The notes beneath the pieces are model-generated. The model saw nothing but the letters and a program-made list of their open reading frames with translations, had not been told where the DNA came from and did not search any database. Position numbers and translations under genes: made by a program. Source: Rhizophagus irregularis (taxonomy: Eukaryota). Taken from it: a DNA stretch of 64,000 nt. The stretch is from the NCBI RefSeq assembly GCF_026210795.1, contig NC_089429.1, positions 2,976,001-3,040,000 of the forward strand. The letters run 5' to 3'. Positions 48,859-64,000 of the stretch are shown here, in pieces. Numbering within the stretch: the first letter of the stretch is position 1; the number at the start of each line of letters is the position of its first letter.

Positions 48859-49728
48859 TAGAGATGCGATCCGAAATCCGAAAATTCGGATCATCCACCA
48901 ATCCATCCGATCTGAACAGATAATGGATGCATCCGGATGGATTAAGGATATCCGTTTTAATCCGAAACAGCATCCAATGATCGTACAGAGATGCACAATA
49001 GCTCATTCGAATCATCGTAATGAGACGATTTGAATGAGCTATTGTGCATCTCTGTACGATCACTGGATGCCGAGATATTCGGCAAAACGTCAAACATCGG
49101 CATTTTTATTTTACGATTATGCAAAATTTTACGTTTTGCCGAATATCTCGGCATCCAGTGATCGTACAGAGATGCACAATAGCTTATTCGGATCGTCTCA
49201 ATGCAACGATTCGAATGAGCTATAGTACATCCCTGTACGATCGTTGGATGCCGAGATATTCGGCAAAACGTCAAAAATCGGCATTTTTTATTTACGATAC
49301 TACCGATTTTTGACGGTTTGCCGAATATCTCGGCATCCAACGATCGTACAGGAATGTACTATAGCTCATTCGAATCGTTGCACTGAGACGATCCGAATAA
49401 GCTATTGTGCATCTCTGTACGATCACTAGATCCCGAGATATTCGGCAAAACGTAAAATTTTGCATGATCGTAAAATAAAAATGCCGATGTTTCACGTTTT
49501 GCCAATTATCTCGGCATCCAGTGATCGTACAGAGATGTACTATAGCTCATTCGAATCGTCTCAATGCAACGATTCGAATGAGCTATAGTGCATCTCTATA
49601 CGATCGTTGGATGCCGAGATACCCAAAAATTTGAAGTTAATCCGGATTATCCAAATTTAATCCTATGATAATCCGGATTGATCTGTGCGGATCACGGATT
49701 GTAAAATTTCATCCGGATCGCATCTCTA
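48859..49728. mobile_element. hAT-type non-autonomous element made of a nested palindrome array
   Basis: TIR TAGAGATGCGATCCG / CGGATCGCATCTCTA; TSD ATCATCAT at 48851-48858 and 49729-49736; ~181-bp period of alternating hairpins. Confidence 0.92.
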
Positions 49729-51695: not shown

Positions 51696-52471
51696 AAAAT
51701 TATGCTTTATTATAGATATAATCATGCTAATTAGATAATTTTTAATTGTATTATCATTACCTTATTGTACGAATTGTCATACCAGCTAAATTCTTACAGA
51801 ATAAATCCAATGCTTTTAAACTAATACTTCTCAACACTATAAGAAAATTTAAAAATTCAGTTGAATATTTGAAATTTCGTAAGCCTTTTCCTTGTTCTTC
51901 ACGTTCTGCAGCTTGTAACATAATATAGCAAAGTCCTTTAAATACTGGTTTTTGGTCAAATGTACCTTGAACGGATTTATTAGCAAGTTCCATCCAAAAT
52001 CTTACAGATGAATCCTCAGTATCAAAAAATTCATTTAATTGTTTAATATGACCATTTTTTAGATATGTTAATAATAGATTATTTTCATAATAAAATTTCA
52101 GTGTAAATTTAGTATTTTTTAGATCGGAAACAGCACAATACAAATGATTCAAAAAGTTGAATTAAAATAAATATGGGAACATGATGAACAGGGTACCTAT
52201 AAGTTTTTTTCTTACAATTAACTGATCGAATGCACATTTCTAAATTAAACGTCAGTATTAATAAATTAATAAATGATCATCATACGTTAACTAATTTTTC
52301 TTTTTAACCAAGAACGATCAACTAATGAATTCTGATTCAACGATCATTTGCTGATTAAAATCAGTTATTTCTTCCTTATTGAGCTTTTTGAAATTAAATG
52401 GTAGTTTATTTGGAAACTTATTTGGAAACATTTCTTTTTCAATTACTTCTCGTCATCATACACCTTTATAT

Positions 52472-52849
52472 CACAGGTCAAAAAGTGGAAAATCAGGCAT
52501 CAATCAGTCACCAATCAGGCAGTTTGCTAACTTTTGATCCAGTGATCAGGAAAAAATGAAATATAGCTCATTGGAATCGTCTCAATAAGACGAATCTAAT
52601 GGTAGTAAAATCGCATTTCTAGGATTAATACTTGATGAGAAATTAAGTAAAATATAAAAATAAAAATGTATCATTTATATTTTATTTAATTTTTTATTAA
52701 CTATTAATCCTAGAGATGCGATTTTACTACTATTAGATTCGTCTTATTGAGACGATTCCAATGAGCTATATTTCATTTTTTTCTGATCACTGGATCAAAA
52801 GTTAGCAAACTGCCTGATTGGTGCCTGATTTTTCACTTTTCGATCTGTG
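52472..52849. mobile_element. Palindromic CACAGG MITE, copy 1 (CACTA/CMC-like)
   Basis: CACAGGTCAAAAAGTG..CACTTTTCGATCTGTG; TSD TAT; nearly the whole element is an inverted repeat. Confidence 0.88.
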
Positions 52850-52852
52850 TAT

Positions 52853-53484
52853 TGTTATCCTGTCAACGATTAAAGCCGACTGAAAAACTTTAACGCTTTA
52901 ACAGGTTAACTGGAGTTTAACTTAATAAGAGAGTCTTAAGTTGATCACAAATAATCACGTGAAATAACGTTGAATGTTCAGTTAAAGAAAATAGGTTTTT
53001 ATTAAAATAATATAAGATTTTGAATACGACAAAAATATAGATAATCTCTTGGTTGCGAAATTAACTATCTTGAATTATACTACTGGGAATAATACTCTTT
53101 TCGTATAACTCGAAAACTACAATACAATTCTTAACTAACTAACTGACCTCACTAACTGACCTCCTCCTACTTGGTAAAATCCTATCACTATTTATAATAA
53201 AATAAAAATCAAGAATATTTGATAAAATAAATAAATCAAATATAATAAATAAATAAAATAAATAAAATAAAATAAATAAATAAGATAAAATAAATATATC
53301 AAATAAATAAAATATAACAAATAAAATAAATAAAATTAATAAAATAAATAAATCAAATATATCAAATTTATCAGATTTATCAAATAAATCAAGAAAATCA
53401 AGAAAATCGAAAAAATCAAGAGATCTACAAAATGATCTACAAAATTGATCTACAAAATTACTGCGTCACATTTCTATTTTAACA
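52853..53484 (-). repeat. 3' LTR
   Basis: Matches 61341-61972; one difference seen (53429 A vs 61917 G). Confidence 0.97.
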
Positions 53485-53497
53485 CTTTCCCCCCCTT
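53485..53497 (-). promoter_or_regulatory. Polypurine tract
   Basis: Purine run AAGGGGGGGAAAG on the minus strand directly abutting the 3' LTR. Confidence 0.9.
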
Positions 53498-53520: not shown

Positions 53521-53907
53521 TTAAATTTCCAATACCAATTGCTTAATTTCATTTTGTTTTAAAGATCTTATCAAATTAACAGTAGTATTAACGGTACGAT
53601 AAATCTGAGTAGGACTTGTTTCAAAAATATAATAAACACGAACAGAAATCCAATAATAATGTTCTGAAACCATTTGTCTAACTTGCTTCTTAGTTAATTC
53701 TTTTTGTTCAATAAGCTGTCCTAAAAAATATGCGAAAACCAGAGCTGGAATTCTTTGTTTTAGTCGTTGAGCTCGTAATAAACATCGGTATGTCACATGA
53801 ATTTTTGTTTTATCATCCATTTCGTTTGAATAAGGTTCGTCTTGTAATTCATGAGAACTATTTCCTTCAATTAATAGGTCTTGTAACACAATTTCGTAAG
53901 GCGTCAT
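53521..53907 (-). CDS. Extra sense ORF (128 aa, helical, unknown function) between integrase and PPT
   Basis: Intact ATG-TAA ORF with a TTCTTATTTAA box about 40 nt upstream. Confidence 0.7.
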   Translation of the reverse strand: MTPYEIVLQDLLIEGNSSHELQDEPYSNEMDDKTKIHVTYRCLLRAQRLKQRIPALVFAYFLGQLIEQKELTKKQVRQMVSEHYYWISVRVYYIFETSPTQIYRTVNTTVNLIRSLKQNEIKQLVLEI

Positions 53908-54348: not shown

Positions 54349-55206
54349 ATGGGCTGCCGTCGATCAAAAACATCCCAAAAAAAATCACAAGCTCGCTTTA
54401 AAAACCTAAAGGCTGCTCGTAAATCACAACTTCGTCAACTTGAAGGTGAGTATTGCACGCAAGGTTCTTAAAATGTTTCTTAAACGGGGATAGCCTGCAG
54501 ACGGGGTTTCGACCTTTATCCGGTTCTTGAACAGTTGATTTATCTGGCTCTTTTCGACTTGCAGACGGGGTATTTTTACCTCCAGGATATCTAGTCTTGA
54601 ATGGACTCCCCCTGTAGAACTTTTTTTGGACTATCGATTTATTCACTTAGTCTTTGACTAACTTGGTATTTCTACTTTTTCCATTTAATAACACAAGATC
54701 AAGTTCAAACGTTTCAATCTGAAAATGATTCCTTACAAGCTAAAAATAATTCCTTACAAAAAGAAGTTGCAATTTTGACGGAATTTGGGGTTTTACAGTC
54801 CGTACAAATCCATCAACAAGAAGAAGAAGCGCAATCTAATAATGAACTGTGGGCTATCGCCCAAAAAGAATGTTGGGAGGCCCAAAAAAAGGTCATTCAA
54901 CAAGATGAAGAAATTGTCGGTTTAAAGGGCGAAGTAAAACAACTGAAAAGGGAGAACAAAAGCGCTATGTATAGTACAAAATATTTTGAAAATAAATATT
55001 ATCACGCGATGAGTGTTATACAAAAATATGGTATGATTGTTGTTGACGATAATATGCCCAAATCTCCTTCACCTATACTTTCATCTTCATCTTCATCTTT
55101 TTCCTCTTCTTCTTACGATCAAATATTTGTTGCTGATGGTCCTGATTATATTAATGATAATAATAATAATAATAACGTTGATAATAATATTAATAATGAA
55201 CAATAA
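54349..55206 (+). CDS. Antisense spliced gene, 201 aa, basic region plus leucine zipper (bZIP-like) and a second coiled coil
   Basis: Exons 54349-54445 and 54698-55206; donor GTGAGT, branch GACTAAC, polypyrimidine tract and AAG acceptor; splicing keeps frame: MGCRRSKTSQKKSQARFKNLKAARKSQLRQLE|DQVQTFQSENDSLQAKNNSLQKEVAIL. Confidence 0.7.
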
Positions 55207-55243: not shown

Positions 55244-56506
55244 TCAAACTATAACTATTGGTTCCAATTTTCGCTCGTGATATTTCTTAAGCCGATTTCC
55301 ATGAATTACATGTTTAACTAATTTCCCATCTAAATTTCTAAGTTTATAAACATTATCATTAAGCACTTCATGAATAAAATAAGGTCCTATCCACTTATTT
55401 TCTAATTTTGCTGAGAAATTATTTTTAAGCCACGTTCGTTCTACTAAGACTTGATCTCCTATTTTCAATTTTTCTGAAATTCCTTGTTGATCATATACTT
55501 GTTTTTGCTTCGCTTGTTCTTTTTCAATTCTTAACGAAACATCATTTCGTTCTTCTTCTAATTCAACTATTAATTGATAAATTCGTCTTTGCATTGGGTC
55601 TTTTTCATTTTGAGGTATTTGTGATGGAATTTTTAAATCAATTGGTAAGGTTGCTTCTCGTCCATAAGTTAAATAGAATGGTGTTTTTCCTGTAGTATTA
55701 TGTTTTTTCGTTCGATATGCCAACAGTACTGCATCGATTAATTGATCCCATTCCTTATTATTATCTTGAACTAATTTTGCAATACATTCACCAATTGTTC
55801 GATTAAATCTTTCAACCATTCCATTTGTTTGAGGTCTATAAGCTGAGGTAAGACGATGTTTAGTTTGATAATTTTCACATAATTCATCAATTAATTTATT
55901 CATAAATGATGTTCCTCTATCAGATAGAATTTCTTGTGGAACTCCATGTCTACAAATAATTTCTTCATAAATAAATTTTGCTACTGTTTCTGCTTTAATA
56001 TTGGATATCGCTCTTGCTTCTGGCCATTTTGTAAAATAATCCATGGCAACAATAATATATCTATTTCCACTACTGGTGATCGGTAATGGTCCTTTAATGT
56101 CAATTCCTATCCTGTGAAATGGTCCCTTAACTGGTATTGGTATCAGTTCTTCTCGCCGATTGGTAGGTCCTCTTCTTTGACAAATATCGCAAGTTTTTAT
56201 ATATTCTTTTACATCTTCTCCTAATTGTGGCCAATAATATCGATCTTTGATTTTTCCAATTATAGCGTCTATTCCTAAATGAGCACCGCTCATATCTGTA
56301 TGAAAGTGATATAAAATAGGTTCTATTTGTTCACGTAGAATTACTTTTCTTATACCATCCTTTGTTTTCCTATATAAAATATTGTTTTGATAAATATATT
56401 GGGTTGAGTTTTTCCGAATTTGGGTTTTCCGTTTATCAGTTATACCATCCATAAAAGTGAGAGTTGTTAAAAATAAAATTAATTCTTTATATAGTTGTTC
56501 ATCCAT
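55244..56506 (-). CDS. int: Integrase (HHCC, DDE, GPY/F motif; no chromodomain) in its own reading frame
   Basis: FH..GAHLG..CDICQR; IGIDIKGPLP; LSDRG; NGMVERFN; KWIGPY; ATG at 56506 overlaps the pol stop. Confidence 0.92.
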   Translation of the reverse strand: MDEQLYKELILFLTTLTFMDGITDKRKTQIRKNSTQYIYQNNILYRKTKDGIRKVILREQIEPILYHFHTDMSGAHLGIDAIIGKIKDRYYWPQLGEDVKEYIKTCDICQRRGPTNRREELIPIPVKGPFHRIGIDIKGPLPITSSGNRYIIVAMDYFTKWPEARAISNIKAETVAKFIYEEIICRHGVPQEILSDRGTSFMNKLIDELCENYQTKHRLTSAYRPQTNGMVERFNRTIGECIAKLVQDNNKEWDQLIDAVLLAYRTKKHNTTGKTPFYLTYGREATLPIDLKIPSQIPQNEKDPMQRRIYQLIVELEEERNDVSLRIEKEQAKQKQVYDQQGISEKLKIGDQVLVERTWLKNNFSAKLENKWIGPYFIHEVLNDNVYKLRNLDGKLVKHVIHGNRLKKYHERKLEPIVIV

Positions 56507-59270
56507 AATCGTTATGTGAGGTTGAAGGATTGGTGTGATTATTGGTTGAGGTTGAGTCAAGACGAGAGAATGCATCAGCATTCGCATGTTTAGTTCCTTT
56601 CCGATATACAATGTCATATTTATATTCTGATAAGGCGATCTTCCATCTTTCCAATCTTTTATTATTATTTTCTGTTGTTGAGTTTAACAACCACTTGAGC
56701 GCTGCATGGTCAGTGATGATGGTGAATTTACTTCCATAAAGATAATGTCGAAAATATTTAACTGCCCATACAATCGCAAGGCATTCCAATTCTGTGATGG
56801 CATAATTCTTTTCCGCTGGTATTAAAGTTCGACTAGCATAGGCAATCACATGCTCTTGATCATCAGTTTTCTGTGCAAGTACTGCGCCTAACCCTATAGT
56901 TGAAGCATCGGTATATAAAAAGAAAGGTTTTGAAAAATCTGGGTATTGTACGATTGGTGCTGTTGTTAATTTATCTCTTAAATTCTCAAATGCCTTCTGT
57001 TGTAAATTTGTCCATTCGTAAGGTGCATCCTTTTTTAATAACTTGTACATTGGATCAGCAACTTTAGCAAAATCTTTGATGAAGCGTCGATAATAAGAGA
57101 ATAATCCTAGGACTCCGCGTAATTCTCTAATATTTTGAGGTTCTGGATAATTAACCATTTTATTAACTTTTTCTGGATCAGGTTTAACACCTTCTTTTCC
57201 TACAACATGTCCTAAAAATTGAAGTTCAGCTGCTGCGAAATAACATTTCTCTGCTTTTAATCTTAGATTCGCCTTACGAATTCTATTTAGAACTTCTTCC
57301 AAATGTTGAATATGATCTTTAAAAGTTTTTGAATATATAATAACATCATCAAGATAAACTAAAACAAACTTCTCCTTTATCCCATGTAAAACTTTATCCA
57401 TAGTTCGCTGAAACGTCGCAGGTGCGTTGCAAAGTCCAAAAGGCATAACCTTGAATTCGTATGTTCCAAATTTTGTGATAAAGGCTGTTTTTTCCTGGTC
57501 TTCCGCCCTTACTTTTATTTGCCAATACCCTGATGCTAAATCTAAAGTGGTGAACCATTGTGCATCTTGTAAAGAATCTAATAATTCATCAATTCTTGGA
57601 AGCGGGTAATTGTCCTTTTTTGTAATATCGTTAAGAGGTTTATAATTAACGCAAAACCTAAGTTTTCCATTCTTCTTTTTCACTACTACTACTGGAAATG
57701 ACCAGGGACTAGTTGAAGGTTTTATTAGCCCTTGTTCTAACATGTCATTAATTTCACTCTCAATAAATTCATTTTCCTTTGGTGCTGTCCTATAAGCTCG
57801 CTTTTTAATAGGTGGCACTTCTTCAGTGATAATAATATGTTCCCCTTCTGGAGTTTGTTTTAACTCTTGCAATGATTTAGCGAATAAGTCTTTATTTTTA
57901 TCCAATAATTGATAAAGTGATTGATATTGATTTTCCTCTAATTCTCCAATCGGAACAACTTTTTCTGGTTCTAATTGAATATTAAATATATTCGAACTTT
58001 CTGATTCTTGCATCACGTGATAAATGTTCCAATCTTCTTGAACTATTTGACAATTATCACAAACTTCTTGTTCTCCTAAGGTTTTACATAGGCATTTTCC
58101 TGGCCCTTTACTATTAATTATACCAGTACTATTGTGACTTTGTTGCTTAATATATTCTAAATATCCTGGGTGATATTCTCGATCATTGATTTGAAAAGTA
58201 CTTTTGGTTATTTCTGCCCTATAAAATGGAACTGCTATGGTGTCTTCTAACTCATCTTCTAATTCTAGTTCATCTACTGGGTCAATGACTGTATATTTTG
58301 TTGGGTCCAATTTTTGAGAACATGTGACAGGAATTTGTTGTTGGATTCCTTCATATTTAATGGTGATGGTATTCTGTCCATAATCAATGTTTGCATTAAC
58401 CTTTTTCAACCACTCATTACCAAGCAGAACATTATATTCAGCTGAGTTTGTAACTATCATATTAATATAGACTTTAATATCCCTCATTTGTACTGGAACT
58501 TGTTGAACCATTCCCAGTGGTGATGACTTTTGTCCCGTTACATCGATGATTTTAATATTCGTAGGTAATTCAATTCCTTTATTGACTTTATCTAGGAATT
58601 TTTTAGAAATAATACAACCTACAGCCCCTGAATCTATTAAGACATTAACAGGTTGTCCATATACAATCGCTTCTCCATACAAAGCTTCTTCGGCTCTTTC
58701 TTTTTGATTAAGATATGCTGGTTCTTCTCTAATCAATTGGTTAAGAATATCAGTATAATAATTAACTAGTGTTGGGGTTAATTCATTATGTTTTGCCATA
58801 AATTGGAATTGTTCAAAAGAAGTAATTGTCCAAGCTCCTTGTTTTTCAGGTTCAGTTCGCTGTAACTCTTGGTAATCAGGTACTTTTGTTAAATAAACAT
58901 CACAATTAAAAGCTGGGTTGTTAAATAAAAATACACATTCATCTTTTTTAATATCTAGTGCTGTTTCTTCTTTTGTTTCTCTAAGTACAGCTTGAAGAGA
59001 AGATTCACGATTTTCTACTTTTCCTCCTGCTACTTGCCATAAATTATACATTGTTTTATTTTTCTGTAGCCGTTTCGATAAATAAATTCCAAAGTTATTA
59101 TATAAAATGTTGAGAACATATGTAGGTCTTTTTAATAGTTGAATTGGCTTTTTAATAGGTCTGATTTCTTCTAATGGGTCCTTCCAATTCACTCTTTTAG
59201 TACTAATTTCGTTAGAGGGTTTTCTAAAATTCGCACTCTCCCCCTCCCGAGGTGCGTTCAGTAGTTTAAA
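56499..59270 (-). CDS. pol: Pol: Nudix hydrolase - aspartic protease - RT - RNase H, entered by -1 frameshift from gag
   Basis: GGKVENRESSLQAVLRETKEETAL; LIDSGA; YPLPRID, MPFGLCNAP, YLDD; TDAS, ELECLA, TDH, NADAFSR; frame open from 59270. Confidence 0.95.
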   Translation of the reverse strand, partial: FKLLNAPREGESANFRKPSNEISTKRVNWKDPLEEIRPIKKPIQLLKRPTYVLNILYNNFGIYLSKRLQKNKTMYNLWQVAGGKVENRESSLQAVLRETKEETALDIKKDECVFLFNNPAFNCDVYLTKVPDYQELQRTEPEKQGAWTITSFEQFQFMAKHNELTPTLVNYYTDILNQLIREEPAYLNQKERAEEALYGEAIVYGQPVNVLIDSGAVGCIISKKFLDKVNKGIELPTNIKIIDVTGQKSSPLGMVQQVPVQMRDIKVYINMIVTNSAEYNVLLGNEWLKKVNANIDYGQNTITIKYEGIQQQIPVTCSQKLDPTKYTVIDPVDELELEDELEDTIAVPFYRAEITKSTFQINDREYHPGYLEYIKQQSHNSTGIINSKGPGKCLCKTLGEQEVCDNCQIVQEDWNIYHVMQESESSNIFNIQLEPEKVVPIGELEENQYQSLYQLLDKNKDLFAKSLQELKQTPEGEHIIITEEVPPIKKRAYRTAPKENEFIESEINDMLEQGLIKPSTSPWSFPVVVVKKKNGKLRFCVNYKPLNDITKKDNYPLPRIDELLDSLQDAQWFTTLDLASGYWQIKVRAEDQEKTAFITKFGTYEFKVMPFGLCNAPATFQRTMDKVLHGIKEKFVLVYLDDVIIYSKTFKDHIQHLEEVLNRIRKANLRLKAEKCYFAAAELQFLGHVVGKEGVKPDPEKVNKMVNYPEPQNIRELRGVLGLFSYYRRFIKDFAKVADPMYKLLKKDAPYEWTNLQQKAFENLRDKLTTAPIVQYPDFSKPFFLYTDASTIGLGAVLAQKTDDQEHVIAYASRTLIPAEKNYAITELECLAIVWAVKYFRHYLYGSKFTIITDHAALKWLLNSTTENNNKRLERWKIALSEYKYDIVYRKGTKHANADAFSRLDSTSTNNHTNPSTSHNDYG
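59215..59270 (-). promoter_or_regulatory. -1 ribosomal frameshift signal (U UUA AAC slippery site plus stem/pseudoknot)
   Basis: TTTAAAC at 59270-59264 in the correct gag phase; CGCAC-CTC/GAG-A-GTGCG stem; loop GAGGG is complementary to downstream CCCTC. Confidence 0.85.
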
Positions 59271-61294
59271 CGACCATTATTTTGGAAACCATTATTGGTT
59301 CCATTATTACTATTATTATCATTTGATGGTGGTGACCTGCAATTCCTAGATACATGTCCTTTTCTTCCACAATTATAACAATCAACATTCCTTAAATCTC
59401 TTCCATTATTGTTGCGATTATTATTATTTTGTTGATTATTTCTTTGACGACAGTTTTTCGCGATATGGCCAGTTCTTCCACAGACATAGCATCCTGAATT
59501 ATTCCTATTTTGATTATTATTATTGTTATTATTTGGAGTAGGATTGGTTGGTTTAGTTTCTGTGCGCATTTGACTTAATGCTGCAGTAATTCCTTCGCTG
59601 ATTTTCCGTTCAACCATCTTTTCTACACTTTCTGGTTGGGAATAACTCATCGAATAGGCAGGTTGATACATGGCTAAGTTGGTTCGAGCAGGGATCATTC
59701 CTCCATTCATATTTTGCAAATAACCTGGCATCATCGAATAAACTGATAGATCCATTCCCATTGAAAAAGCAGTTTCTAATGCTTATGCTTTTTCCATTGC
59801 TTCTTCTACTGTTTGAGGCATAGCAGATTGTACAGGTACAATGAATTCAGGTCTTAAACCTTCAATAAATTCATGGATTTTATCTAATTCCATTCGTCTA
59901 TCTGTGGGATCCACTCTTTTCCATAATTCTGTGATTGCTGCGATATATTCTTCAATTGTTTCTCCTTGTTTTTGTTTCCTATTTCGCAGTTGATGTTTCC
60001 ATTGACTAATCCTGAAGGGATTACAGAAATGATCCTTAAATAAATGCGTAAATGATCGTTGAGGACTATTATCATTCTCCCAAAAAATAATATTTTGACG
60101 ATTGTACCAAGTTAATGCTGTCCCTTTAAGATAGGATGCTACTAAAACAATCGCTCGTTCTTCACTGACTCTATTAGCTACACAAGCTCTACTAAAAGCT
60201 TCAATCCATTCAACAGGATCCTGATTTCCTCCTTTGAAAACTGGAAAGTCGACTAGTCTAGATTCTCTAGGCTCAACTCCTTTTGCGTAAAATTTTTGTG
60301 CCTGTTGAAAAAACTGGAACATGATCTTATTTTGTTCAGCTTCATTAATAGGAGTTTGTTCTTCTGGTTCCTCATCATCTTGTAAATTATTACTAGAAAA
60401 ATCAAGAAGGTCATTCTGTCGAGAAGTTTTCAAGGTTGATGTTCTAATACTAGGAGAACCAAATGAACCCTGAAACGGTTTTACAGTTACAAATGATTTA
60501 AGATTTGATGATGATCCAGTACCAGGATACGGTTTATAAGTTGAATACGGTTCTGTACTCCATTTATTTGAACTACTGCTGGTTTTAGCCTTTTGCTTCT
60601 CTTTCATTTCTTTTTTTGGATCATAAATGTGATCATTTGAAGTATCGTTTATACCTATTTGACTGAAGCTACTATCTTCACCATTTTTGAGTACTGTATC
60701 ATGTGATATTATACTTTCTGCTTCTTCGTTTTCACCTTCTTCATTTCGTTGGTCTTGCCATGCTTTGTCTTGTATACTTGTTGTAGGCTCAGTTCCTCCA
60801 AATTGTTGTTCACTACCTGAACTTTCATTATTTTTATCTGTCTTATTTTGATTCACTTTCCCTGACATCTTACTTGTATTACTGGCTGTATCTGATGATT
60901 GTTCTGAATAATATGCTTCCCAATTATTGAATCGGTCTGTTACTTCCCAATAAAATTGTATCGTTTCTACTAATGTATCAAATGCCGGTATTACTATGTA
61001 CCTAATAGTTTGTACTAACTCCTGAATTAGTTTGTAAGCTTCTTGGATATCTCGCTGTCGCTGTAATTTCCTAAAGATTCGTATAGTATTTTGTGTAAAA
61101 ACACTATCTGGATACCTGGGTGAAATAACGAATTGCCAAAATTCTCTAAATCTGGGATTCTCTAATAATCCTAAATTCTGATCTTCTGGATAGCAATCTG
61201 CACACGATAAATCTTCAATTAAATCTTGTTTTCCCTGGTTATGATCTTCTATATGCTGAAAAATCTGTTGTAAATACTGAAATTCCTTATTCAT
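59258..61294 (-). CDS. gag: Gag (retrotransposon capsid domain plus two CCHC knuckles) with one in-frame TAA at 59783-59785
   Basis: FKGGNQDPVEWI..YLKGTALTWY..QKQGETIEEY..FIEGLRP; CYVCGRTGHIAKNC; CYNCGRKGHVSRNC; the two ORFs share a frame. Confidence 0.92.
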
Positions 61295-61319: not shown

Positions 61320-61337
61320 TCCACCCAACTCGCACCA
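61320..61337 (-). promoter_or_regulatory. Primer-binding site, probably tRNA-Phe
   Basis: TGGTGCGAGTTGGGTGGA 3 nt inside the 5' LTR; its complement CCACCCAACTCGCACCA resembles the yeast tRNA-Phe 3' end CCACAGAAUUCGCACCA. Confidence 0.75.
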
Positions 61338-61340
61338 AAT

Positions 61341-61972
61341 TGTTATCCTGTCAACGATTAAAGCCGACTGAAAAACTTTAACGCTTTAACAGGTTAACTG
61401 GAGTTTAACTTAATAAGAGAGTCTTAAGTTGATCACAAATAATCACGTGAAATAACGTTGAATGTTCAGTTAAAGAAAATAGGTTTTTATTAAAATAATA
61501 TAAGATTTTGAATACGACAAAAATATAGATAATCTCTTGGTTGCGAAATTAACTATCTTGAATTATACTACTGGGAATAATACTCTTTTCGTATAACTCG
61601 AAAACTACAATACAATTCTTAACTAACTAACTGACCTCACTAACTGACCTCCTCCTACTTGGTAAAATCCTATCACTATTTATAATAAAATAAAAATCAA
61701 GAATATTTGATAAAATAAATAAATCAAATATAATAAATAAATAAAATAAATAAAATAAAATAAATAAATAAGATAAAATAAATATATCAAATAAATAAAA
61801 TATAACAAATAAAATAAATAAAATTAATAAAATAAATAAATCAAATATATCAAATTTATCAGATTTATCAAATAAATCAAGAAAATCAAGAAAATCGAAA
61901 AAATCAAGAGATCTACGAAATGATCTACAAAATTGATCTACAAAATTACTGCGTCACATTTCTATTTTAACA
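61341..61972 (-). repeat. 5' LTR
   Basis: 632-bp match to 52853-53484. Confidence 0.97.
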
Positions 61973-62788
61973 GTATGTAGCTGGTGTTTGATTAATATAA
62001 GTAACAATTTGTTCAGAATGAAATCCAGGACATGGTTTATTTGAAAATGATGGCGGTGGTGGCGGTAATGAATATTCTAAGTATTCTCTTACTTTTTTAG
62101 GATTAGGTAAGACAAAAAACAAACCAGGTAAACCAAGTTGTCATTTTTGATTATTTATTTTACATCTTAAGTTTCTAGAATGTTTGTTAAGCCTTTTTAC
62201 ATCATAGTCATTATCAAGAATAACCTTTTGTCCACATTTGCAAAATACTTCACATTTATTAATAATAGCTGCACAAAATTTATTATCACTTAAGCGAGTT
62301 CAAGTATGCTTCCACTTCAACATTATAAAAGTAAAGTTTTAAAAGTTTTTGTAAAAAAAACACGTATTTAGTTTTAAAATATATACTTTTGATCATGAGA
62401 AAGGGTGAAAAAAAATATTAAAACAGGATAAATTTGCTAAAACGAATAATATGACTATGAGAAAATCCATTTAATTCGCCAAAACATATAATATGACTAT
62501 GAGAAAATTCATATAATTCGCCAAAACTAAAAATTATGACTACCCCTTAAATTTCATGAATTCACCAAAACTTAAATTTGGACATTAAATTAAATTTGAG
62601 TTAATTTGCTAAAACTTAAATGTGACCTGTATATGTATTTTCTGGGGTCCTACCAGTGGTGATCGTCATTATATGTAAAATATCTTTTGAATTTCAAAAA
62701 TTTTTGACTGAGATATTATTCTAATTATAATATAAAATATCATTACTATACGTAAATTTATGGGTAGAACAAGTTTGCCTTAGATTAT

Positions 62789-63229
62789 CACAGGTCGAAA
62801 AGTGAAAAATCAGGCACCAATCAGTCACCAATCAGGTAGCTGATTGGTGACTGATTGGCATTTTCGCCAAATACAGTCACCAATCGGGCAGTTTGCTAAC
62901 TTTTGATCCAGTGATCAGAAAAAGTTGAAATATAGCTCATTGGAATCGTCTCAACAGGACGAATCTAATGGTAGTAAAATCGCATTTCTAGGATTAATAC
63001 TTGATGAGAAATTAAGTAAAATATAAAAATAAAAATGTATCATTTATATTTTATTTAATTTTTTATTAACTATTAATCCTAGAGATGCGATTTTACTATC
63101 ATTAGATTCGTCTTGTTGAGACAATTCCAATGAGCTATATTTCATTTTTTTCTGATCACTGGATCAAAAGTTAGCAAACTGCCTGATTGGTACTTGATTG
63201 ATACCTGATTTTTCACTTTTCGACCTGTG
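62789..63229. mobile_element. Palindromic CACAGG MITE, copy 2
   Basis: CACAGGTCGAAAAGTG..CACTTTTCGACCTGTG; TSD TAT at 62786-62788 and 63230-63232; highly similar to copy 1. Confidence 0.9.
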
Positions 63230-64000
63230 TATAAAAGCTGTACTTTAGATAGTTTTTGAAAAAAATAGGAAAGTTTGATTTTATAAGCAAAATACAATTT
63301 TTTGTTTTAAAAAAGATTTTTTTTAATCAAATTTTCAAAATTTTAGTATGATTAGTATTTAACTCAGGTTTGTTTTACACTGAAGACCTCTGATTCTCTT
63401 ATAAGAGTTACTACATCGAATCAGGCTTCATGAATAAGAGTTAGTATTATGTGATAATAGTAATATAAAAAACGTGGTTAACAAAAATAAAATACAATTT
63501 CAAATCAGAATTCAATTTATTAAAATAAATTAAATAGGACCTATATTTATACAAAATATAGTAATACAAAATATCCTTATTTCAAGAACTATGATATAAT
63601 AAATGACATTATATATCCAGTTTATACTCGTATAATAGGAGTATTGTCCATCATCTATGTATAATATCTTTATATAGATCGTATCCTTGATCAGTGACCT
63701 GAAGTAATAGATTTGCATTACTGGCTAATCCTTAATTCTATTCCTTTAATTCTATAATTCCTACTCTACCTACAACTTCTGTTTTTCATTAATTTATGTT
63801 TGATTTCTGCTGGTTACAACACATTTATTATTTAAATTGAAATTTTTGAAAAAAAATTTATGATGTGTTTTTTAATTCTGGCCAAAATTATAATTTTCAG
63901 CCAGAATTAAGTGATGTGGTGACAATAAATACTGGTGATATTTAGTAATACCTTTTATTTTTTATTTAAACAAAACGTTGACTAACGTTTCAATTTTTAC

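Follow-up and report, generated by a model that had tools for sequence, protein, structure and literature searches.

The window analysed here, a 64,000-nucleotide stretch of Rhizophagus irregularis contig NC_089429.1 (positions 2,976,001 to 3,040,000), contains a Ty3/Gypsy retrotransposon on its minus strand. Its features, in window coordinates, are as follows:

61341..61972 (-): 5' LTR, 632 bp, one mismatch to the 3' LTR; followed by GTAT at 61973-61976
61320..61337 (-): PBS-like 18-mer beginning TGG; the identical 18-mer occurs in relative L003
59258..61294 (-): gag (Ty3 capsid, two CCHC knuckles), with an in-frame TAA at 59783-59785 where relatives are open
59264..59270 (-): slippery heptamer TTTAAAC, predicted site of a -1 frameshift from gag to pol; invariant in 11 of 11 aligned type A junctions (types defined below)
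59215..59256 (-): H-type pseudoknot of two stems, predicted frameshift stimulator; covariation in the type A alignment
58743..59126 (-): Nudix hydrolase domain, first folded domain of Pol (Pfam, AlphaFold2 model, Foldseek, profile matches)
58956..59024 (-): Nudix box (ORF translation, aligned rows)
58830..58853 (-): EPEK..W motif; its Glu appears to align with NUDT15 Glu113, judging from match ranges
58317..58721 (-): aspartyl protease, DSG at 58626-58634 (Pfam)
57177..57866 (-): reverse transcriptase (Pfam)
56499..57176 (-): RNase H and end of the Pol frame (Pfam, ORF)
55244..56506 (-): integrase in its own frame, its ATG overlapping the Pol stop (ATGGATGA) (ORF, Pfam)
54658..55206 (+): antisense open frame of 182 codons, coiled-coil-like, between integrase and ORF3
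53521..53907 (-): ORF3, a helical protein of 128 aa, common to relatives of all three types
53485..53497 (-): polypurine tract (from sequence)
52853..53484 (-): 3' LTR, 632 bp; preceded by GTAT at 52849-52852

The element displays the LTRs, target duplication, PBS and PPT of a Ty3/Gypsy retrotransposon, and gag is followed by protease (PR), reverse transcriptase (RT), RNase H (RH) and integrase (IN), in that order and with Ty3-type domains. It shares with Ty3 (Metaviridae) the Ty3-type capsid, the domain order, the LTRs, the PBS and the PPT, but places its integrase in a separate ORF, contains an additional ORF3 and a Nudix domain, and is predicted to use a -1 frameshift, whereas the frameshift of Ty3 is +1. 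The near identity of the LTRs, noted in the original prediction, was confirmed; because they differ at a single base, end in TG..CA and are flanked by a 4-bp target duplication (GTAT), the insertion is young. The same prediction described an intact frame. This is correct for Pol, a 925-codon open frame (56499-59276, minus strand) that encodes Nudix, aspartyl protease, RT and RNase H in order, but not for gag, in which the in-frame TAA lies upstream of the frameshift site; this copy therefore cannot make Gag-Pol, is defective alone, and would depend on a second copy acting in trans.

Among named proteins, the closest come from Rhizophagus irregularis (95–99% identity). Contigs from four runs (four studies) cover the whole gag-pol stretch in many variants; this variation shows a multicopy family and is no proof of expression. 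The position of the gag stop is not represented among the 40 of 287 rows listed. The antisense frame had no match in the 80 related loci described below and no Pfam hit above cut-off. The element adjoins a palindromic MITE-like repeat (window 52459-52832 and 62789-63242), with a 97% identical copy 10.4 kb away; related palindromes are present at window 48970-49674.

The feature of greatest interest is the first folded domain of Pol. The Nudix box lies at exactly the position originally proposed (G53-L75 of the translated domain), and the flanking IYLSKR and LWQVAGG segments before it and EPEKQGAW after it were likewise present in the translated frame. The box departs from consensus at two positions, and not solely at the final glycine as had been stated: threonine occupies the ‘U’ position, as it does in 17 of 17 type A rows, and alanine replaces the final glycine; both positions vary in the family. 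E59, R67, E68, E71 and E72, the metal-binding glutamates among them, are all present, and the modelled fold includes the box helix. The window copy alone has N in its NDP motif; the 76 other rows with a residue there have D.

The profile and structure checks that had been suggested both returned a Nudix domain. Pol matched PF00293 within its 925-aa frame (E 2.2e-9; 37.8 bits against a cut-off of 21.1), and a further score of 42.2 bits also exceeded that gathering score. An AlphaFold2 model of the ∼130-aa domain, built with an input of 25 homologues, reached a pLDDT of 89, and its top Foldseek match was NUDT15 (E 3.6e-8, probability 1.0), followed by DR1025, AtNUDX1 and Dcp2 (8.6e-8), all within a factor of three. 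A profile built from all three types gave its longest-span matches to AtNUDX1 and NUDT15, which include EPEK..W and reach profile position 108; sequence matches to Dcp2 and RppH cover little outside the box (profile 31-63 and 7-63, respectively). The ranking of enzymes depends on the query: with type A, MutT and NudB come first, the best matches shift among MutT, NudB, NUDX1 and NUDT15, and NudB ranks first in NCBIfam, where all matches fall below cut-off.

The window domain shares with human NUDT15 and Arabidopsis NUDX1 (PDB 5bon, 6fl4) the xKR, Q..GG, box and EPEK..W elements, but is only 22–26% identical to them, has NDP...C and TP motifs of its own, and is fused into a polyprotein. The NUDT15 pocket floor (Phe135-Arg139) lies outside the matched span and is not alignable, and other queries give MutT and NudB equal or higher scores. 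As mapped through match ranges and the AtNUDX1 alignment, the equivalents of NUDT15 Arg34, Gln44, Glu63, Glu67 and Glu113, which bind substrate and metal (10.1101/740837; PMC4532830), would be R37, Q49, E68, E72 and E110; AtNUDX1 has alanine at the position of Gln44. We conclude from the modelled fold and the motifs that Pol in the window contains a genuine Nudix hydrolase domain, and that the proposed likeness to NUDT15 and NUDX1 is supported by fold, profile span and EPEK..W. Just upstream of the domain, type A loci share a conserved [KR]xVxW-like motif (window ∼59184-59198, minus strand). We take this motif to resemble the PP1-docking RVxF motif, possibly by chance.

Gag terminates at TTTAAAC plus a stop codon, and pol begins in the -1 frame. 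Within the predicted pseudoknot 95.5% of 132 cells in the alignment are paired, a figure favoured by the use of the same alignment to draw and to score the structure, and 4 of 12 pairs show changes on both sides; none of 500 shuffles reached as high a degree of pairing, and slid controls gave 27–61%. From the heptamer, the pseudoknot and the -1 pol frame we infer that Nudix is translated at the head of Pol within a Gag-Pol fusion. Downstream, the relation of the integrase ATG to the Pol stop was compared in nine elements (window 56499-56506, minus strand, and L001, L006, L008, L010, L011, L014, L020 and L070): five have ATG-NN-stop, three have TAATG, and in one the ATG is five bases further from the stop. 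This arrangement suggests stop-restart translation.

Relatives of ORF3 are located at L011:7941-8330, L020:6276-6659 and, weakly, L031:7177-7602. Neither a Pfam nor a fold match was found for ORF3, whose best model had a pLDDT of 91 and the other four 64–69. With its predicted frameshift pseudoknot, its integrase in a gene apart and its ORF3 without a match, the clade would bring an unusual mode of translation to an important symbiont of plants. Few RNA reads fell on the element, and most of these were on ORF3. Across four runs (three samples, about a quarter of each scanned), in which the fungus may or may not be well represented, none covered the Nudix domain; the same runs gave 1–37 reads on other parts of the element, most of them derived from diverged copies.

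The Nudix domain is not limited to the window copy. A metagenome scan for relatives, in which all loci were found via Nudix, yielded 153, of which the best 80 were kept; Nudix lay inside Pol in 65 of these 80, at three positions as judged from neighbouring domains: between gag and protease (type A, 19 loci), between protease and RT (type B, 10 loci), or just after RNase H (type C, 36 loci, many being near-copies of two families from few samples and not independent events). Of the 15 loci without assignment, five proved to have the tail of RNase H upstream when a closer query was used, and one (L019) is not a retroelement. Pfam confirmed the order Gag-PR-Nudix-RT-RH in a single frame of 1438 aa (P0276), and the order RT-RH-Nudix in single open frames in P0267, L031 and P0075. 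No close relative of the Nudix domain or of RT-RH was found in IMG/VR, which returned 40 weak, generic Nudix matches. All three types also contain Cys/His-rich modules of variable sequence that may bind zinc and are found next to Nudix or within spacers of Pol (L001:165-490, L011, L014, L017, L020, L031 and the PR-RT spacer of the window).

Separate trees were built for RT and Nudix, as originally recommended. In a quick RT-RH tree (37 rows, six of them under half filled, with no outside reference elements) position tracked lineage: type A formed one clade (99), six of seven type B rows grouped together (94), and three changes of position were needed against 15.8 in shuffles. The Nudix tree (86 rows) placed 34 typed rows on one side of a branch (95) from 22 stand-alone rows, although a few stand-alone proteins fell inside. 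Nudix and RT-RH identities were correlated (Spearman 0.80 over 120 pairs from 16 elements, Mantel p 0.0005; 0.62 over 79 cross-type pairs), and RT-RH identity across types was 41–56%. Swapping of Nudix between RT lineages, raised when the first quick tree split type C, is not supported, as keeping type C together gave the higher likelihood (p-AU 0.69). We believe that the simplest reading of these sequences is one old acquisition followed by relocation within Pol.

Estimates of dN/dS for Nudix, which bear on whether the domain evolves neutrally, argue against that possibility: values were at or below 0.24 in 24 of 27 hand-picked pairs, with 0.09–0.23 for the window against five relatives and 0.01–0.03 for type C, the exceptions being a nearly identical pair (0.54), a pair of which one copy has decayed (0.72) and a pair at saturation. 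Alignment across elements thus shows Nudix held in Pol by purifying selection. Because constraint on the protease-RT spacer is similar, these ratios are not by themselves evidence of catalysis, and the stronger point is which residues are fixed. Among 39 stop-free rows of the 77 aligned, 33 were typed; in these, R37 was kept in 13 of 13 type A, 5 of 5 type B and 13 of 15 type C rows, Q49 and E72 in all 33, E68 in 31, and E110 in 29 of the 30 that cover it. Nudix therefore looks like an old, selected and relocatable module of Pol.

Retroviral dUTPases also occupy N-terminal, PR-RT or C-terminal positions in Pol. The original prediction had drawn an analogy to dUTPase at a single junction; with three matching positions, the parallel is stronger than was claimed. 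According to PMC2864245, dUTPase in Postia Gypsy elements lies at the Pol N-terminus, between PR and RT, or at the C-terminus, so that the dUTPase-bearing Gypsy elements of Postia, Phanerochaete and Tuber likewise carry an accessory nucleotide hydrolase in Pol at closely matching positions; these dUTPases have an unrelated fold and are reported there as independent acquisitions, whereas the Nudix domain here looks like one family that has moved. NADAR, another nucleotide-processing accessory domain, occupies the same position as the window Nudix, at the Pol N-terminus, in a Gypsy lineage of Ectocarpus, but differs in fold and host, and a single position is reported in the portion of PMC12477816 available.

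Given the likeness to dUTPase in its positions, the substrates of NUDT15 and a close non-retroelement relative outside the clade (P0207) that is a deoxynucleoside kinase-Nudix fusion, the reading that we favour, and to which we would give an even chance, is that Nudix acts as a particle-borne (d)NTP pyrophosphohydrolase which, while reverse transcription proceeds, clears away nucleotides that are non-canonical or present in excess (dUTP or damaged purine dNTPs). Gag-Pol fusion is the means by which Pol enzymes are delivered into the particle. The -1 frameshift would yield Gag-Nudix-PR-RT-RH, and this fusion would carry a few copies of Nudix to where RT works; the domain, possibly cut free by the element's protease, would be catalytically active in the particle and fill the role played elsewhere among retroelements by dUTPase. 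The best substrates of human NUDT15 are dGTP, thio-dGTP, thio-GTP and dUTP, whereas it is a poor 8-oxo-dGTPase (PMC4532830); as a guess from the nearest structures, dUTP is at least as plausible a substrate as 8-oxo-dGTP. Should it indeed clean the nucleotide pool, then one problem has been solved twice by retroelements, with unrelated folds. At ∼130 aa, it is easy to assay.

Against such a sanitising role, the best sequence match shifts with the query, Dcp2 nearly equals NUDT15 in Foldseek, the pocket floor appears specific to this family, and the four runs placed no read on the domain; furthermore, an enzyme that destroyed dGTP would hinder RT. That last point has a counterpart in the idea that Nudix hydrolyses canonical dNTPs, balancing the particle pool or limiting the element's own copying. 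The roughly tenfold preference of human NUDT15 for dGTP over 8-oxo-dGTP (PMC4532830) speaks for it, but long retention over lineages with 41–56% RT-RH identity is more easily explained by a benefit to replication, and we regard it as decidedly improbable. The Dcp2 and RppH structures among the Foldseek and profile matches point instead to RNA 5' ends (m7G or NAD caps, triphosphates), which the domain might process on RNA of the element or of the host, to the benefit of packaging, strand transfer or the translation of downstream ORFs; Nudix domains also occur in large proteins of fungal dsRNA viruses, and integrase and ORF3 need unusual translation. We consider this unlikely: those matches extend little beyond the box, unlike those to NUDX1 and NUDT15, and Pfam found no Dcp2 regulatory N-terminal domain in the ∼130-aa domain, whose similarity to Dcp2 is confined to about profile positions 30-63.

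A role for Nudix need not be tied to RT at all, because the same family is also found outside retroelements (L019, P0128). These members occur (L019:916-2999; P0063, P0128, P0259) alongside genes for F-box proteins and an Mrr nuclease in an array free of introns, which is perhaps another mobile element. Such company would suit an enzyme of counter-defence or host manipulation that would degrade nucleotide signals (Ap4A, ADP-ribose) and use its fusion to Pol simply as a means of expression, an arrangement for which NADAR in the Ectocarpus elements offers a precedent (PMC12477816). ApnA and NAD(P) also docked best in a recent study of fungal NUDIX proteins (PMC12210691), but they did so for every new subfamily, and docking that puts large ligands first throughout is a weak guide. 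Placement inside Pol in 65 of the best 80 of 153 loci, and within a low-abundance frameshift product in type A, despite the existence of free-standing extra ORFs, makes this rather unlikely. Finally, the ‘fusion’ reading of gene models would leave Nudix a captured host gene fragment or a non-catalytic, passive spacer. Decay is indeed common, as the proportion of stop-free rows indicates (39 of 77), and the domain drew no reads in four runs; yet the dN/dS values, the invariant catalytic residues, retention at three positions, and the separation of retroelement Nudix as one clade from 22 unrelated stand-alone rows have already largely refuted this view, which we judge very improbable.

The fusion itself, originally thought to be novel, has already been published, in passing and with reference to gene models. 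Pasterny et al. 2025 (PMC12210691) describe a fungal NUDIX subfamily K of 14 proteins, nine with retrotransposon domains; its members have protease, knuckle and RT domains, a likeness to NUDT15 and 8-oxo-dGTP docking, and the supplement proposes a NUDIX-retrotransposon fusion in Rhizophagus. One subfamily K gene in R. clarus is reported there at a TPM of 8.3. Three listed members (GES91988.1, GES97325.1 and GES89098.1, our P0006, P0119 and P0121) are 56–58% identical to the window Nudix, and GES97325.1 is 61% identical to the window over 847 Pol residues. The window Nudix falls in the same clade of our tree as the listed members and is accompanied by the retroviral protease and knuckle domains (Pfam), and its host belongs to the Glomerales, as for subfamily K; by sequence, it belongs to subfamily K.

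Our literature search, which covered sources other than subscription journals, Repbase and TE-library files, found no paper describing this element lineage and no clade-wide, selected Nudix module at three positions; ‘nudix’ is absent from the main texts of PMC6338049, PMC11075540, PMC10799480, PMC11952901, PMC2864245 and PMC12477816. With somewhat less than even confidence, we propose that an entire clade of fungal Gypsy elements has carried Nudix since before its RT lineages diverged to below 55% identity, and that the domain replaces dUTPase as a non-homologous sanitiser packaged with RT, has moved at least twice within Pol, and would be the first Nudix shown to serve reverse transcription. 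If true, what was published as a fungal enzyme subfamily would turn out to be a module of transposons, which would account for some of the excess of Nudix genes seen in mycorrhizal genomes. One relative, P0123, is a fragment of a type B retroelement on a 1.1-kb contig filed under a bacterial MAG, and misbinning of this kind may explain the ‘bacterial’ members of subfamily K.
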